The notes under the pieces: generated by a model | The model's input: only the letters and a program-made list of their open reading frames with translations | Told to the model about the DNA's origin: nothing | The model's database searches: none | Translations under genes and position numbers: made by a program | Assembly (NCBI GenBank): GCA_015522475.1 | Contig: WAMF01000001.1 | Span: 36,054 to 100,053 of the forward strand | Direction of reading: 5' to 3' | From: Candidatus Micrarchaeota archaeon | GTDB lineage: Archaea > Micrarchaeota > Micrarchaeia > Anstonellales > J096 | Length of the DNA stretch: 64,000 bases | Shown: positions 6,868 to 57,181 of the stretch, in pieces | Layout of the letters: every line of letters begins with the position of its first letter | Numbering within the stretch: position 1 is the stretch's first letter

Positions 6868-6965
6868 CCCGCCGTAGCTCAACGGTAGAGCGCCCGGCTG
6901 TAGTTTGTCGCCGCGAAGGCTAAGTGGTTACCGGGAGGTTGGCGGTTCAAATCCGCCCGGCGGGA
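6868..6965 (+). tRNA. tRNA-Tyr (anticodon GUA) with ~26-nt intron in the anticodon loop
   Basis: Acceptor CCCGCCG/CGGCGGG has the C1:G72 pair diagnostic of archaeal/eukaryal tRNA-Tyr, with A73. D-arm GCTC-AACGGTA-GAGC; anticodon stem CCCGG/CCGGG with loop CTGTAG^(intron TTTGTCGCCGCGAAGGCTAAGTGGTT)A; T-arm GGCGG-TTCAAAT-CCGCC. Confidence 0.75.
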
Positions 6966-7046
6966 CTCATATTTTTAGATGCTCATTATACCTTGTTTCC
7001 CTTCGCTGTTATGTCACTCTGTTACTTTTCCACTTTCATTGCTTCG

Positions 7047-16828: not shown

Positions 16829-17752
16829 ATGCAACTCTACGACAAGCTTAACCAAGCGTGGAAGCAAACAGCTAAGATAGTGCTGGGCGACGAAGTAGGT
16901 GAGTTGAAGGATTATGAAGGGCTACTTAAGCAACACATGGAAGGTGAGCTTATAGAGAAGCGCTCAGCCATAAGTGAAGAAGCTGTAAGCGTGCCAGCTG
17001 AATACAAAGCCCTGCCCGTCGCTTCTATGAGTGAGTTAGATAAACTGAGAAGGGTTAAGCTGGACATCAACGACATAAAGGACATAGATACGATTGTGGA
17101 GAGGCTAAAGGAAGAGTTTGTTTATGTCGGTAATGTGGCCTTGGGAAAGAGCAACTTTGTTGAAAAGAGCAGTAAAGTTGTCGACAGTCAATATATATAC
17201 AACAGCTATGATGTGTTCAACTCTAGGTTCGTTATGTATGGAAGCCATATTCGTAATGAGAAGTATGTCTTCGGTGTAAGAGATGGAGGAAATGTTGAGT
17301 TCGCCATTCTATGTAGAGGGTATGGGGGCACTAAAGAAGCGGCATCCATACGAGTATTTGAAAGCGTAGTCATAGGCTTTTCTAAAAACACATACTACGG
17401 CGCTGTTTGCACATATTGCAATGAGGTCTTCTTCTCCTTCTTCCAGTACGGCGCCCGCTACACCATAGGCAACCTCCAGCATACCCCCGACAAGTATAAG
17501 CAGATAAAGGCGGCTTTGCTCGAAGAGATTAGAGATAATCTTAAGGCTAAGAAACATGTAAGCATCTTTGACTTATTCATGGAAGGCACAGAAGAGCAAG
17601 AAGAGACAAAGCGCATTGTACAGGAGAGATTAGCGGGCCAATCCTATGAAATTCCCTTTGATAAAAAGCCCATAGAGGAGGCATTTACTGCCACAAGTAA
17701 GCTGTTGTTGGGTAAGCCTCTAGAGGACGGCATAGATGCATACGAGAAGTGA
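16829..17752 (+). CDS. N-terminal half-homolog of the repeat-module protein (split paralog of 20002..21609)
   Basis: Colinear with residues 1-300 of ORF 20002..21609 (MxLYxKLNQAWKQTxKIVLGDEVGEL...IGNLQ..DKY.Q.KAALLE.IR..LKAKK); ~85% DNA identity over the first ~60 nt. Confidence 0.5.
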   Translation: MQLYDKLNQAWKQTAKIVLGDEVGELKDYEGLLKQHMEGELIEKRSAISEEAVSVPAEYKALPVASMSELDKLRRVKLDINDIKDIDTIVERLKEEFVYVGNVALGKSNFVEKSSKVVDSQYIYNSYDVFNSRFVMYGSHIRNEKYVFGVRDGGNVEFAILCRGYGGTKEAASIRVFESVVIGFSKNTYYGAVCTYCNEVFFSFFQYGARYTIGNLQHTPDKYKQIKAALLEEIRDNLKAKKHVSIFDLFMEGTEEQEETKRIVQERLAGQSYEIPFDKKPIEEAFTATSKLLLGKPLEDGIDAYEK

Positions 17753-18447
17753 CTTACAAAGAAAACGCCTACTACGATTATGAGCCCGTGAAGAGCGCGT
17801 TTATGGGCTGGGTAGGGCACATGAATTATAAGCTTGACAATCTTCCAAGAAAGGTTGTGGAAAGGACTTTTATAACTGAAAGAGAAGGGAAGGTCTTAGG
17901 TAGTAGCGTGCACATAAAAGAAGAAGAGGTGGATGAACTTTCTTTTAAAGACATAGAAAACTTGAAGAGGATAATCTCCAGAGTTTACACTATAACATAC
18001 CATTCAAAGGATGACCTCTCTTCAAACTTTGACGATGCCGCCTCTGTGTATGGGTCGAGGGATGTCTACAGGAGTCCAATAACGATGTTCAGCAAAAAAT
18101 GCGCTTACTCCATTTTTCCTAGGAATAGCAGTTACCAATTCGGCTCATCCCTCGTATTGCAAAGCGAGTTCGGCATAAACGTGTACATGAGCGATAACAT
18201 CAAACGCGGCTTTGAAGTGGATAACTCCGCTCACAGCAGCGACATCTACTTCAGCCATAACTGCGAAGGCAGCTCCGATGTGATGTTCTGCTTTAACGGG
18301 AAAGGGCAGCGTAATAGCATAGGACATAATCAGCTGGAGAGGAGCAAGTACTTGGAAATAAAGGCCGCCCTGCTCGAGCAGATATGGAGCGAGCTCAATG
18401 CAAAGAAGGATTTCCGCTACGGCATTTATTCGCTGGTGAGGGAGTAA
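17749..18447 (+). CDS. C-terminal half-homolog of the repeat-module protein (split paralog)
   Basis: GTG start overlapping the upstream stop (GTGA); aligns to the C-terminal module of 20002..21609 (SSDIYFSH..SS.VMF....G.R..IG...L...KYL.IKAALLEQI). Confidence 0.5.
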   Translation: MTYKENAYYDYEPVKSAFMGWVGHMNYKLDNLPRKVVERTFITEREGKVLGSSVHIKEEEVDELSFKDIENLKRIISRVYTITYHSKDDLSSNFDDAASVYGSRDVYRSPITMFSKKCAYSIFPRNSSYQFGSSLVLQSEFGINVYMSDNIKRGFEVDNSAHSSDIYFSHNCEGSSDVMFCFNGKGQRNSIGHNQLERSKYLEIKAALLEQIWSELNAKKDFRYGIYSLVRE

Positions 18448-20001: not shown

Positions 20002-21609
20002 GTGACCGAGCTCTACGAAAAGCTAAACCAAGCGTGGAAACAAACGTGTAAGATAGTGCTAGGCGATGAGGTAGGCGAGCTGAGCGAGTATAAGCCATGG
20101 TTGGAAGAAGTCTTCAAGGAGTATAGCTCTCCAGAGTACGGCCCTTGGAAAAAGGAAGTGAGCTCAGCCTTGACGGAGAAAGCCGTTTACGTTTTTGCCC
20201 CTTTCTATGAGAAGGGAGCTAAGTTCGCTGAGTATGATCTATTAAAGGAGAAAAAGATAGAGCCTTTATCGTTAGATGAGATAAAGGACATAGACTCTAT
20301 TTTAGAGGCATGGAAAGAGCGCTGGTGTTATAAGGCCAGTGTCGTCCTAGGCAAAAGCTATCATGTAGAAGAAAGCGATTCCGTGTTTAATTCAAGCTTT
20401 GTGTTGGGCTCCTATGCTGTAGCAGAGTCTAGCTACGTGGCTTATTCCATATGGGTAAGGAATGGTGGAAGATATATATTCGGTAGTGGAGGCGGGCCGG
20501 GTTTTAAGTTTGCCATACGTTCAGGATACGGCGCTGGCTTCAATCGCGGCATGGGCACATACTTTTTCGCTAACGTAAGCGACGTTTACTTTAGCCACTA
20601 CATCTTTGACAGCAGCGAGGTCATGTTCTCCTTTAATCAGATAGGTAAGCACTACATCATAGGCAATCTTCAGCTAACAAAGGATAAATACATGCAAACA
20701 AAAGCGGCTTTACTTGAGCAGATAAGGGCTGAGTTAAAAGCAAAGAAACGTTTTCCTTCTCTCATGGAGTTAGTGGCTGAAAATAAAGCTAAGCTTCTCC
20801 CTATCCCAGAAGAAGAGCTGAAGAAGATAAGTGTAGAGGAAGAGAAGTGCGATATGAAGCCCATAGAGGCGGGATTTGAGCGCACAACAAAGCTTTTGCT
20901 AGGAGAGAGCTTTACTTTAGATGAGCTGAAGGGCTATCTCATGGGGAAGCGAGCCGTTCCTCCTCAGCTCATAGAAACGCCCAGCGGAGCTAAGGCTGTG
21001 TACTACTCCGTTCTTTATCACACATCTTGGCCTAGTGACATAAACCTCAGGATCATTATTGACAAGGAAGCTAATGCGGCAGCAACTGTAACACTGGAAG
21101 AAAGCTCTATAAAAGAGCTCAGGAGTATTCGTCAAAGTATCGGGAGGATCGCCTACATATCCCAAAGCCTTTCATATAAGAGTATGAATATCTGCAGCGT
21201 TCCCATATCTTTCAACTCAAGGGATGTCGCATATATCTTTGACACTACAGAGAATAAAGTGGCAGCCTATAATTACGTGGGCAGCCCCTCTTCCAGCTAC
21301 ATCTTCGGTAGCTTTTTCACCACCAACTCTTCCTTTGTCATAAACAGCGACGTAAATGAGAACCTGCAGCGCGCTATAGAAGCAGACCGCTGCTCAAACA
21401 GTAGCGACATTTATTTCAGCCACGATATAGACGGCTCAACAGAAGTTATGTTCTCCCAGCACTTGAAAGGCGCGCGCTACACCATTGGCAACTTAGCCCT
21501 TGATAAGGAAAAATACCTCTCCATAAAAGCCTCCCTACTCAGCCAAGTCGTGAATGAATTAAAAAGCAAAGGCAAGCTGCACTTCGGCGTGAGGGAGCTA
21601 GGTGTATAG
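20002..21609 (+). CDS. repeat-module protein of unrecognised family (fused paralog)
   Basis: 535 aa; two tandem modules each consisting of S/V-rich beta-strand-like repeats capped by the helix KY..IKAALLEQI..ELKAKK; no match to families I recognise. Confidence 0.55.
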   Translation: MTELYEKLNQAWKQTCKIVLGDEVGELSEYKPWLEEVFKEYSSPEYGPWKKEVSSALTEKAVYVFAPFYEKGAKFAEYDLLKEKKIEPLSLDEIKDIDSILEAWKERWCYKASVVLGKSYHVEESDSVFNSSFVLGSYAVAESSYVAYSIWVRNGGRYIFGSGGGPGFKFAIRSGYGAGFNRGMGTYFFANVSDVYFSHYIFDSSEVMFSFNQIGKHYIIGNLQLTKDKYMQTKAALLEQIRAELKAKKRFPSLMELVAENKAKLLPIPEEELKKISVEEEKCDMKPIEAGFERTTKLLLGESFTLDELKGYLMGKRAVPPQLIETPSGAKAVYYSVLYHTSWPSDINLRIIIDKEANAAATVTLEESSIKELRSIRQSIGRIAYISQSLSYKSMNICSVPISFNSRDVAYIFDTTENKVAAYNYVGSPSSSYIFGSFFTTNSSFVINSDVNENLQRAIEADRCSNSSDIYFSHDIDGSTEVMFSQHLKGARYTIGNLALDKEKYLSIKASLLSQVVNELKSKGKLHFGVRELGV

Positions 21610-31964: not shown

Positions 31965-33227
31965 TTATAATGGTAACCATTCTATCTCATAGTAAAGCGT
32001 CGAGCTACTTTCTAAGATGATTCTACGAGCTATGTAGAAAGTTATGGCCGTTTCTCTATCTACAATAGCTAGCATGACATTCAATCCCTTGGCTAAAGCC
32101 CACTTAAACAAGCCATGAAGAAGCCTACCCGTTATTCCGTCTGACTGCCTAAGCACTTTAACAGCAAAACGCTCAATTTTGGGGTTGTGTTGTTGAACAA
32201 GCTGCTTGCTGAGCTTATCTTTGCTCTCTTGGCTGTTGCCTTTCCCTTTGCCCGCAATGCTTACAACAAAATCTGGTTTGACAGCTCTAGCCTCAAAGAG
32301 AGGAAGTGCTAATATGTATGTTTTTCTAACACTGTGACAAACCCGTATAGAACGACTCCAATCCTCTACGCGCGTCCGGAATGAGGCAGGAAAGACATGA
32401 AGTATGTGCTTCGAATGGATACGCTGGCCGGGCTTTGTTGATGCAGGATAGATTCTAAAATCACCACCAAACTTAAACCCGCTTTTGAGAACGAAGCCCG
32501 CATCCCGCCATTCTTTGTATACAGAGTAAAGTGCTTTCTCGTATGCAGAAAGTGCAAGTGCTGCTTCTTTTTTCTTCTTGCCTTTGTTCTTACCATGCTT
32601 GCCATCAAAGGATAAAATGCCTTTCTCAGCAAGGTACTGTGCCTCATACTTGTCAATAAAAAACATCCGACCCTTGTTCTGTTTATATATGCCTTTTTGG
32701 CCGAACCAATACTCTGTGTAAAGAGATGATGAACCATCTATCTGATAGAGAAAACCGTCAAAGCCTTGAATGTGTGCCTTCTCCTCTTTTAGTCCTCTCA
32801 CGTTCCATCGCGCTTTCTTGTATTCCTTCACGGGCTTAGCTTTTCCCTCAGCTTCATCCACGCTGCCAACAAACGTAAAGCCCCTTTCATGCAAGTAGCG
32901 CCATGTGATGTATTTAGCGTAGTCCACATGCGACGAGAGAAAAAGTTTTGACGCACTTTCATTTGCGAGCTCAACGCCAAGTATATCATAGAGATAAATA
33001 GCTGCATAAGGAGAAAGTTTTGCTCGCTGAGCTTTTCTCTTGGCTTTCTCTACAGACTCGTTGTTTCTGTCCTTGAGTTTAAGAGAGCTGGCAAGACCGC
33101 GTGCTATAAGCCTCGATACCTCCGCTTCCTCTCCTTCATAGAACCACTCCACTTTCTCCCTAGCTTTCGCGTTCTTTGCTGTTGCAGCTTTGCTCAGCTC
33201 ACCAACAATTTTACCCTTTAACCTCAT
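31965..33227 (-). CDS. endA: tRNA-splicing endonuclease, three-unit (epsilon-like) form
   Basis: Central unit matches the EndA catalytic domain (AGFVLKSGFKFGGDFRIYP...HSKHILHVFP...IRVCHSVRKTYILAL; compare M. jannaschii RGYIVKTGLKYGADFRLYE...HSVYLVKVFP...VRVAHSVRKKLLIAI). A second degenerate EndA-like unit lies at the C-terminus (NVMLAIVDRETAITFYIARRI), plus an N-terminal extra unit. 420 aa. Confidence 0.75.
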   Translation of the reverse strand: MRLKGKIVGELSKAATAKNAKAREKVEWFYEGEEAEVSRLIARGLASSLKLKDRNNESVEKAKRKAQRAKLSPYAAIYLYDILGVELANESASKLFLSSHVDYAKYITWRYLHERGFTFVGSVDEAEGKAKPVKEYKKARWNVRGLKEEKAHIQGFDGFLYQIDGSSSLYTEYWFGQKGIYKQNKGRMFFIDKYEAQYLAEKGILSFDGKHGKNKGKKKKEAALALSAYEKALYSVYKEWRDAGFVLKSGFKFGGDFRIYPASTKPGQRIHSKHILHVFPASFRTRVEDWSRSIRVCHSVRKTYILALPLFEARAVKPDFVVSIAGKGKGNSQESKDKLSKQLVQQHNPKIERFAVKVLRQSDGITGRLLHGLFKWALAKGLNVMLAIVDRETAITFYIARRIILESSSTLYYEIEWLPL

Positions 33228-33856
33228 GCAAGACCCTCTTTTCCTTCCTTCTGGCCATTGCCCATTTGGGCGCTCTTCTGGCCGAATACAAGATAGGCTG
33301 TATGGAAAAGCTGCATGTTCTTGGGGCGTGTGGCTCCCTCTTTAATCCTGTATTCTATGAGAGGCAAGGAAATGACAAACACGTGGTTAAAGAGAATGGT
33401 CATAGCCTCATAGAGGCGCTTAACCTGCTCTATGTTTGGTAAATAGGCTACGAAATAGCCCCCTGAGTTCAACCGCTCATAGGCGCGTTCGACGAGTTCC
33501 TCGGGCGCTGGAATATCCACGACGATTGCATCCAAGGAGTCTTCGTCGAAGTCCCGACCATCCCCATTCTTTATAACGACGTTGTCTAGTTTTGCCTTCT
33601 TTATGTTTGCCGAGAGAATTTTATAGGCATCTGCCCTAATTTCGTACGCATAAACCTCCTTAGCAACTCTTGCCAAATGATAAGTAAGAAAGCCGTTGCC
33701 TGCGCCTATTTCGACCACGCGCGACGTCTTGCCGATGTTTGCATAGGCAATGATAGCGCCTGCATCCTTTGGTAGAACAACAGCCATGCGTCGTTTGAAT
33801 GAGGCCAATGGCTTAGGCATGTGAAACACTTCTACAGCTTTCTTCTCACCTTTCAT
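33224..33856 (-). CDS. SAM-dependent methyltransferase, TrmI (tRNA m1A58)-like
   Basis: VVEIGAGNGFLTYHLA motif I, acidic motif II (YAYEIR), NVVIKNGD and VVDIP motifs; 210 aa. Confidence 0.5.
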   Translation of the reverse strand: MKGEKKAVEVFHMPKPLASFKRRMAVVLPKDAGAIIAYANIGKTSRVVEIGAGNGFLTYHLARVAKEVYAYEIRADAYKILSANIKKAKLDNVVIKNGDGRDFDEDSLDAIVVDIPAPEELVERAYERLNSGGYFVAYLPNIEQVKRLYEAMTILFNHVFVISLPLIEYRIKEGATRPKNMQLFHTAYLVFGQKSAQMGNGQKEGKEGLA

Positions 33857-49632: not shown

Positions 49633-50298
49633 TTACTCCTCTATCTCCAGCCTCTCAAAGTAAGAAATAGGCACTTTGAACTCGTCGTAGCCCTTTATGC
49701 CGCCGTGTTTTAGCATAAGCTCTCTAGCCAGAAGCCAAAAGAAAAGGGCTAAACTCTTCCTACCTTTGTTATTCATAGAAACGACGTGGTCTATGCCTTT
49801 TGTCATATTGTCTGTATCAACAAGACCAACAACAGGAATCTTGGTATAGTTGGCTTCTCTTATAGCTTCTTTCTCTGTCCTAGGGTCACATACAATAACA
49901 ACGCTAGGCTCTCTAAAGTGCTTACTTTCAGGATTTGTGAACGTGCCCGGAATAAACCTATCTGTAATTATATCTATGTCCTTGAAGAACTTCTTCAGTT
50001 TCTTCGCGGCATTTTGGGCGTAGGCCCTCGTCGCAACAATTGTTATGTCCTTGTTATCGAAGTTTTTTAGGAATTGGAGTGCTTCCCTCATATGCTCGTC
50101 TATAGCATGAATATCAAGTATGTATATGCCATCCTTCCTCTTTTTATAGATAAATTCTGCAGTGTCGCCATTCTTTAACTTCGTTCCAATATGTATGCCT
50201 GCTTCTAAATAACGCTCCACGGGCACAAGAAAACCTGCTGTTGCATTCTCTTCTGCGTTATTTTTAGTTTCCATTTCCTCTTTTGCCTCATCAACCAT
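49633..50298 (-). CDS. rps2: 30S ribosomal protein S2
   Basis: VERYLEAGIHIGTK...VVIVCDPRTEKEAIREANYTKIPVVGLVDTD uS2 core; start set to Met at 50298 because the upstream extension of the ORF runs through a tRNA-like element. Confidence 0.85.
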   Translation of the reverse strand: MVDEAKEEMETKNNAEENATAGFLVPVERYLEAGIHIGTKLKNGDTAEFIYKKRKDGIYILDIHAIDEHMREALQFLKNFDNKDITIVATRAYAQNAAKKLKKFFKDIDIITDRFIPGTFTNPESKHFREPSVVIVCDPRTEKEAIREANYTKIPVVGLVDTDNMTKGIDHVVSMNNKGRKSLALFFWLLARELMLKHGGIKGYDEFKVPISYFERLEIEE

Positions 50299-50337
50299 AT
50301 TCTCACCCAATTTTGATTCCTCGCCAGTGAAAAGTGA

Positions 50338-50440
50338 TGGGGCCGCCGAGAGTTTCAGGGCCAAGCACAAAGCAAAGCCCTTTTGAACTCGGGTTACGGG
50401 CACCCCAAGCCCGCAGGCTCCCAGGCTACCCCACGGCCCC
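50338..50440 (-). tRNA. candidate tRNA-Pro (anticodon GGG) with ~30-nt insertion in the T-loop (non-canonical intron)
   Basis: Minus strand: acceptor GGGGCCG/CGGCCCC+A73, D-arm GGGT-AGCCTGGGA-GCCT, anticodon stem CGGGC/GCCCG with loop TTGGGGT (U33, G37), T-stem CCGAG/CTCGG, T-loop TTCAAA followed by AGGGCTTTGCTTTGTGCTTGGCCCTGAAACT inserted before the 3' T-stem strand. Confidence 0.5.
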
Positions 50441-50460
50441 ATCGAGCGCGATTGCTAGCC

Positions 50461-50658
50461 TTAATCCCTTCTGTAGGGCAACACCTCTTTGTTAAGCTTT
50501 ACATAGCCCACGAACATACGCCTACAACAGTATCGTTTTATGCCCAGCTCTTCAAACGCCTCTTCGGGTGTCTTACCCTGCTCGAGGAGCTCCTTATAAG
50601 GTTTGAAGAGATGGCCTATAACCTTTCCACATGTAAGACAGCGCATAGGAACTTCCAT
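50461..50658 (-). CDS. rpoN: DNA-directed RNA polymerase subunit N (Rpo10)
   Basis: MEVPMRCLTCGKVIG...GIKRYCCRRMFVGYV matches the Rpo10 zinc-bundle; start at internal Met. Confidence 0.8.
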   Translation of the reverse strand: MEVPMRCLTCGKVIGHLFKPYKELLEQGKTPEEAFEELGIKRYCCRRMFVGYVKLNKEVLPYRRD

Positions 50659-57082: not shown

Positions 57083-57169
57083 AGCAGGGGTCGCCAAGCC
57101 TGGTCAACGGCGTCAGGTTCAGGGCCTGATCCCTTAGTGGGTTCGTGGGTTCGAATCCCACCCCCTGCA
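57083..57169 (+). tRNA. tRNA-Leu (anticodon CAG)
   Basis: Acceptor GCAGGGG/CCCCTGC+A73, anticodon stem TCAGG/CCTGA with loop TTCAGGG, long variable arm, T-arm GTGGG-TTCGAAT-CCCAC. Confidence 0.85.
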
Positions 57170-57181
57170 CTTCTCTTTTTT
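57170..57181 (+). terminator. oligo-T tract after tRNA-Leu
   Basis: cttctcttttttt directly 3' of the tRNA; archaeal terminators are T-rich. Confidence 0.4.

Follow-up and report, generated by a model that had tools for sequence, protein, structure and literature searches.

A predicted bulge-helix-bulge intron in the T-loop of a tRNA-Pro(GGG) gene between rpoN and rps2 of a Micrarchaeota archaeon

A tRNA gene between rpoN and rps2

The window analyzed here, a 64-kb stretch of DNA, belongs to a MAG of the Micrarchaeota (DPANN), an ultrasmall archaeon. On its minus strand lies a run of genes in the order rpl18e-rpl13-rps9-rpoN-tRNA-rps2, in which the tRNA begins 20 nt past the stop of rpoN, its upstream neighbor, and is followed 39 nt downstream by an ATG of rps2 with GGUGA in front.

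50461..50658, minus strand: rpoN, RNA polymerase subunit N (65 aa; Pfam PF01194, E 6.3e-24)
50338..50440, minus strand: pre-tRNA-Pro(GGG) gene, 103 nt (exon 1, intron, and exon 2), read from the sequence; its spliced form is called by ARAGORN
49633..50298, minus strand: rps2, ribosomal protein S2, from its likely true start at ATG 50298 (GGUGA upstream; close homologues of 207-209 aa)

Read on the minus strand from 50440, the 5′ part of the tRNA is GGGGCCG UG GGGU AGCCUGGGA GCCU G CGGGC UUGGGGU GCCCG UAAC CCGAG UUCAAA, after which the insert AGGGCUUUGCUUUGUGCUUGGCCCUGAAAC and then U CUCGG CGGCCCC A extend to 50338. The acceptor stem (7 bp; GGGGCCG/CGGCCCC), the D-arm (GGGU-AGCCUGGGA-GCCU), the anticodon arm (CGGGC-UUGGGGU-GCCCG), and the T-stem (CCGAG/CUCGG) are all unbroken, the variable loop (UAAC) has 4 nt, and every conserved base is found, namely U8, A14, G15 with C48, G18G19, U33, and G37, together with G53:C61, U54 U55 C56 A57 A58, and the discriminator A73. 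Cloverleaf, invariant bases, anticodon GGG, G37, and A73 mark the gene as a tRNA-Pro(GGG) on the evidence of the sequence, the ARAGORN call, and a consensus fold with orthologues. The sequence-only reading had placed such a cloverleaf with intact arms on the minus strand between rpoN and rps2, and both the fold and the placement hold. The gene divides into the parts below; the extra D-loop position 17a shifts the anticodon to raw nt 35-37, and CCA is not encoded.

50382..50440, minus strand: exon 1, tRNA nt 1-59 (acceptor 5′ strand, D-arm, anticodon arm, UAAC, CCGAG, UUCAAA)
50404..50406, minus strand: anticodon GGG, Sprinzl 34-36
50352..50381, minus strand: 30-nt BHB intron AGGGCUUUGCUUUGUGCUUGGCCCUGAAAC, predicted between tRNA positions 59 and 60; same site and motif in L083, L084, L088, L001, and other orthologous loci
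50338..50351, minus strand: exon 2, tRNA nt 60-73 (U60, CUCGG, CGGCCCC, discriminator A)

The ORF for S2 had been noted to run straight through the tRNA, and indeed the longest such ORF (49633..50442, 269 aa) spans it uninterrupted. The rps2 product is 100% identical to a database entry from contig JALTHZ010000012.1 of MAG GCA_027075965.1, where the public gene call (P0001) has the same 269-aa form and rpoN is uncalled. Relatives of this product bear the labels Micrarchaeota, Micrarchaeia, or Anstonellales. Because it was read through the tRNA, the public rps2 call is 48 codons too long; by all sequence indications the ORF from 50442 is an over-extension, and the artifact recurs in P0031 (261 aa, from another relative), which starts MGPWGSLGAC like P0001, a peptide that is the tRNA 5′ end translated. 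No convincing archaeal TATA-like box was seen in the 20 nt between rpoN and the tRNA, suggesting that the tRNA is expressed either by read-through from rpoN or from a promoter within rpoN.

Splice motif and candidate endonuclease

As had been anticipated for gene-finders, the unspliced locus escapes detection. ARAGORN makes no call on it by default or with -i, which admits anticodon-loop introns only, and the Rfam tRNA covariance model fails to match it both at gathering score and with the cutoff relaxed to E<=10. With that cutoff, Rfam hits in the 301-nt region were limited to FMR1-AS1 and mir-320, both chance matches, with zero tRNAs. The Rfam tRNA model misses the locus because the 30-nt T-loop insertion defeats it and, more generally, an intron in the T-loop is missed by programs that allow introns at 37/38 only (ARAGORN -i, the Rfam tRNA model). 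The archaeal mode of tRNAscan-SE 2.0 has a non-canonical intron search on by default (PMC8450103). Deletion of the intron (50381..50352) in silico gives a full-length, 73-nt tRNA-Pro(ggg) in ARAGORN with the T-loop UUCAAAU, and the spliced T-arm is identical to the T-arm of intronless orthologues.

As a chance control, every 3-4-3 BHB that could be drawn on either strand of the window (n=3292) was excised, and the products were put through ARAGORN. New junction-spanning tRNAs arose at 2 loci only, the tRNA-Pro described here and a tRNA-Tyr(GTA) with a canonical intron (6868..6966), so the original observation of the tRNA-Pro and its coordinates are confirmed. No second tRNA-Pro was found within the 64-kb window by ARAGORN, Rfam, or the excision screen. 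The tRNA-Tyr(GTA), on the plus strand, has a 26-nt intron at 37/38 and was found by Rfam and by ARAGORN with -i and missed by default ARAGORN; a tRNA-Leu(CAG) (57084..57170, plus strand) was called by ARAGORN and was absent from the output of the Rfam tRNA model at gathering score.

In archaeal BHB motifs the cut falls behind the second of the three nucleotides of either bulge, and the rule that defines the motif is well established (Marck and Grosjean 2003). Under this rule, bulge 1 consists of the last two bases of the 5′ exon and the first intron base, the four bases 5′ of bulge 1 pair with the four intron bases 5′ of bulge 2, and bulge 2 consists of the final two bases of the intron plus the base that opens the 3′ exon (PMC3239211, PMC4090602). 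The insert, initially described as a hairpin-forming intron of about 30 nt at 59/60, is exactly 30 nt long with the helix h′ GGGCU/GGCCC, and the elements of the motif fall in place as follows.

50384..50387, minus strand: central helix H, 5′ strand UUCA (tRNA 54-57), pairing with UGAA at 50354..50357
50381..50383, minus strand: bulge 1, AAA (A58, A59, and the first intron nt), with the predicted 5′ cut after A59 (50382)
50376..50380, minus strand: intron helix h′, 5′ strand GGGCU, pairing with GGCCC at 50358..50362
50358..50362, minus strand: intron helix h′, 3′ strand GGCCC
50354..50357, minus strand: central helix H, 3′ strand UGAA (intron)
50351..50353, minus strand: bulge 2, ACU (the last two intron nt and U60), with the predicted 3′ cut after C 50352

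Helix H (UUCA/UGAA) has 4/4 Watson-Crick pairs and lies between two 3-nt bulges on opposite strands. The flanking helices, for which at least 2 bp each are required, are the T-stem as h, with 5 bp, and h′, with 5 bp including one G-U. A search for a BHB or a relaxed form had been suggested as a check of the junctions, and the motif found is a strict hBHBh′ (3-4-3), not relaxed. A strict motif at 59/60 should be cut by any archaeal splicing endonuclease. We evaluated the BHB as a constrained or suboptimal structure, since the MFE fold alone does not draw two bulges; it replaces bulges and helix H with a single 6x6 internal loop and so gives no positive support for the BHB. The BHB fold of the T-arm and intron has -18.9 kcal/mol against an MFE of -21.2, a gap of 2.3 kcal/mol that ranks it third among the suboptimal structures. 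An MFE that prefers the internal loop is common for BHB motifs, which the enzyme stabilizes. The whole 103-nt fold has z = -4.1 against shuffles.

A gene for a candidate splicing enzyme lies in the same window.

31965..33227, minus strand: endA, tRNA-splicing endonuclease (EndA), ARMAN-2 ε-type-like, 420 aa (Pfam PF01974, tRNA_int_endo, E 1e-20)

The window ORFs numbered 66, and EndA was reached through a six-frame motif search that located GFKFGGDFRIY...IHSKH at ~32474 on the minus strand. Its best solved relative is 4FZ2 (E 4.6e-44; query 165-418 versus chain 144-385), the ε2 three-unit endonuclease of ARMAN-2 (PMC3488258), and its length, next to the 395 aa of the ARMAN-2 enzyme, is compatible with an N-terminal pseudo-catalytic αp unit; residues 1-164 have no significant alignment to 4FZ2 or Pfam. 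In the alignment to 4FZ2, a Tyr/His/Lys triad in the α unit is followed by a fused C-terminal β unit, with Y260, H271, and K302 opposite ARMAN-2 Y236, H251, and K282 (residue names from PMC3488258). The lysine of the ARMAN-2-specific loop (ASL) is also kept (G179-I-Y-K182-Q-N-K versus G158-T-Y-K161-V-S-E-H in ARMAN-2; PMC3488258). A three-unit architecture is likely, and EndA is the enzyme expected to excise the tRNA-Pro(GGG) intron.

Next to endA is a gene for a GCD14/TrmI-family methyltransferase of the tRNA m1A58 type (33224..33856, minus strand; Pfam E 4.6e-14). The stop of this gene and the start of endA share 4 nt, so that the two genes, both for tRNA maturation, appear to belong to one operon. 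The position of m1A58 methylation, A58, sits inside a BHB bulge of the tRNA-Pro precursor. No RtcB-like ligase was seen among the long window ORFs when these were read by eye. Elsewhere in the window, the neighboring plus-strand ORFs 16829..17752, 17749..18447, and 20002..21609 look like a local paralogous family; the first and third open with nearly the same N-terminal segment (LY.KLNQAWKQT.KIVLGDEVGEL), and similar C-terminal motifs (KAALLEQI...AKK) occur in all three.

The orthologous slot across Micrarchaeota

Scanning GTDB species representatives with an S2 alignment gave 80 loci, and in 48 of the 80, essentially all from Micrarchaeota, rps2 is immediately preceded on its own strand by a full-length sequence resembling tRNA-Pro(GGG). 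Of these ~48 orthologous loci, 11 are intronless, ~15 have a 59/60 intron, and the remainder have 53/54 or multiple introns. An automatic solver for strict BHBs left ~24 related loci unsolved, comprising 11-13-nt introns without h′, relaxed motifs, and 2-3 nested introns.

Intronless, called by ARAGORN: 11 loci
Single strict-BHB intron at 59/60, 17-49 nt: L001, L008, L014, L045, L051, L052
Short 59/60 introns, 11-13 nt (H keeps 4 bp, h′ weak or absent): L026, L032, L069, L079
23-nt 59/60 intron (H keeps 4 bp, h′ weak or absent): L017
Intron at 53/54: ~8 loci
Apparently two or three introns, longest precursor 270 nt: remainder of the ~48 loci

Two-intron 53/54 and 59/60 versions like that of ARMAN-2 occur, for example, in L011, L034, L038, L039, L042, and L044, a D-loop intron occurs in L010 and L065, and the 270-nt precursor is that of L025. 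In L051, L052, L069, L070, and L079 the anticodon loop reads CUUAGGGA/G, and after intron removal L051 and L052 are called tRNA-Pro(AGG) by ARAGORN. A34 is unusual in archaeal tRNAs. For ARMAN, a tRNA-Leu(AAG) with A34 has been mentioned (PMC3239211).

The four closest relatives (S2 70-74% identical; found by exact-protein look-ups) all have the 59/60 intron (4/4). The window gene and three relatives compare as follows.

Window: intron of 30 nt, h′ GGGCU/GGCCC
L083: intron of 30 nt, h′ GGGC/GUCC
L084: intron of 29 nt, h′ GCAUGC/GCAUGC
L088: intron of 18 nt, h′ GAGC/GCUC

In all four, H is UUCA/UGAA with two 3-nt bulges and the h′ sequences are unrelated, and in our reading of these sequences such constancy of bulges and H around unrelated h′ sequences in close relatives is covariation. 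H covaries to UUCG/CGAA in L026, L032, and L045. L087 (an NCBI MAG) and L088 (a Logan assembly) have the same S2 protein, and their tRNAs differ at T-loop position 54, which is C in L087, breaking the first H pair, and U in L088; either an error of assembly or variation within the population could account for the difference.

Covariation was scored on the motif in 11 orthologues, aligned and trimmed; these had been chosen partly for a paired H, a preselection that leaves h′ and the T-stem as the unbiased evidence. In this alignment 97.2% of cells are paired and 6 pairs have both partners changed, among them every one of the 4 scored h′ pairs and the H pair A57:U, which becomes G57:C in L045. 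The covariation score was reached by 0/500 shuffles, and sliding the partners by one column halved the pairing. Spliced and intronless orthologues also share one common cloverleaf with 8 compensatory pairs, and the spliced window tRNA has 80-92% identity to the intronless tRNA-Pro(GGG) in the same slot of relatives.

These comparisons bear on the reading that the 30-nt insertion inactivated the T-loop and that the locus is a disrupted tRNA pseudogene, now out of use. Rejection of the unspliced sequence by standard tRNA finders would fit such a history, and another tRNA-Pro(GGG) could exist beyond the 64-kb window. However, the insert is placed exactly where a strict 3-4-3 BHB forms, all conserved tRNA bases and stems are unbroken, the introns of orthologues share this site and show compensatory changes in h′, exon evolution is constrained by the cloverleaf, a matching endonuclease gene lies nearby, and the syntenic slot of relatives holds tRNA-Pro(GGG) with or without an intron. 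The common cloverleaf and the identity to intronless tRNAs argue strongly against a pseudogene, and we reject this reading as very unlikely.

A second alternative keeps a real, expressed tRNA and has the insert cut at other junctions or retained as an expanded T-loop. The A-run at the 5′ junction (UUCAAAA) does let alternative cut sites be drawn, yet only the 59/60 cut obeys the BHB rule and gives the universal 7-nt loop UUCAAAU found in intronless orthologues, and a retained insert would leave a 37-nt T-loop that destroys the tertiary contacts between D-loop and T-loop; the chance that this alternative is right is very slim. That the N-terminal extension of S2 is real and the tRNA-like fold incidental is practically negligible and was likewise rejected, for although the ORF is open throughout from 50442 to 49633 and P0001 uses the 269-aa form, the closest homologues have 207-209 aa and start near ATG 50298 with GGUGA upstream, the only other carrier, P0031, begins with the translated tRNA 5′ end, and the same DNA in relatives is an ARAGORN-called tRNA outside the S2 gene. 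We consider it highly probable that the locus is a functional, spliced tRNA-Pro(GGG) with one 30-nt BHB intron at 59/60 in the T-loop.

Processing, precedents, and meaning

A functional, spliced tRNA-Pro(GGG) would mature along the following lines. Lying on the same strand, 20 nt past the rpoN stop, the tRNA is probably cotranscribed with the ribosomal-protein/RNA-polymerase operon, and the ends of its precursor would be trimmed by RNase P and RNase Z. In the precursor, U54-A57 (UUCA) would pair with UGAA of the intron to form a 4-bp helix between the bulges AAA and ACU, and helix and bulges would stack between the T-stem and the intron hairpin GGGCU/GGCCC, mimicking a canonical intron of the anticodon arm. 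Following the BHB rule, the ε-type endonuclease encoded 17 kb away would cut after A59 and before U60, and an RtcB-type ligase would join the exons to yield a tRNA of 73 nt whose T-loop, UUCAAAU, is standard. Since the gene does not encode CCA, this would be added after splicing.

The likeness to a canonical 37/38 intron, such as that of the tRNA-Tyr(GTA) in the window, extends to the 5-bp stem, the 4-bp helix, the two 3-nt bulges, and the intron hairpin. In the canonical case, the 4-bp helix is formed by the first four loop bases and the 3′ end of the intron, and here the T-arm takes the place of the anticodon arm; the two differ in that the canonical intron lies in the anticodon loop and the intron described here in the T-loop. 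Positions 59/60 and 53/54 are among the recurrent sites of non-canonical introns (PMC4090602). Introns of Thermoproteales, other Crenarchaeota, Nanoarchaeota, and Thaumarchaeota resemble the one in the window in being spliced by protein enzymes that depend on the BHB (Marck and Grosjean 2003; Sugahara/Fujishima; review PMC4090602). Those lineages have (αβ)2 endonucleases, and both the organisms and their intron sequences differ from those seen here.

The closest precedent is the pre-tRNA-Pro(GGG) of Candidatus Micrarchaeum acidiphilum ARMAN-2, in which two introns, one at 53/54 and one at 59/60, form strict BHBs (Fujishima et al. 2011, NAR 39:9695, PMC3239211, Fig. 1C). It matches the window gene in phylum, isoacceptor, anticodon, the 59/60 T-loop intron, and the strict hBHBh′, and its endonuclease is likewise of ε-like lineage, whereas it has two adjacent introns (53/54, 59/60) in place of 59/60 alone and intron sequences unrelated to that of the window. 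ARMAN-2 ε2 EndA cleaves a 59/60 intron in vitro (PMC3239211; PMC3488258, Fig. 7), which is direct biochemical proof that enzymes of this class remove T-loop introns and agrees with the window in both intron position and enzyme family. The substrate in that work was a relaxed hBH (BHL) whose cleavage needs the ASL loop, unlike the strict BHB of the window intron, which therefore should not need a broad-specificity enzyme. The sequence-only reading had described such introns as known from ultrasmall archaea and rare elsewhere. The host is itself one of these organisms, and since a 59/60 intron is already on record for the same tRNA of ARMAN-2 (PMC3239211, Fig. 1C), an intron in the T-loop is typical of this lineage rather than rare. 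The T-loop-split tRNA-Pro(GGG) is thus a correct observation but not new in kind, given that the same phylum, tRNA, and position were published in 2011; relative to ARMAN-2, the novelty is only a single intron with an unrelated sequence. It adds one case to the 59/60 BHB introns described in Micrarchaeota and would not surprise a specialist.

The practical value of the locus lies in annotation, as the tRNA is missed, rps2 is over-called, rpoN is uncalled, and P0031 has the same error. A MAG in which this tRNA is missed appears to be without tRNA-Pro(GGG), and such omissions distort both the tRNA complement of DPANN archaea and estimates of completeness. The ~48 orthologous loci with 0-3 introns are a usable set for studies of intron gain and loss, as a by-product rather than a surprise. 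The states of the slot in related genomes range from no intron through 59/60 introns of 11-49 nt with unrelated sequences to 53/54 introns and up to three introns. It is conceivable, though we think it unlikely, that the rpoN-tRNAPro(GGG)-rps2 slot is a hot spot of continuing intron turnover or of selected intron retention across Micrarchaeota. If the T-loop intron were actively retained, for example because it prevents folding of the T-loop as long as the tRNA is still part of the polycistronic ribosomal-protein transcript, or because it shields a target of integration into tRNA genes, the series would amount to a natural experiment on the reasons for which archaeal tRNA introns are kept and change position, and the window gene would be one informative state within it.
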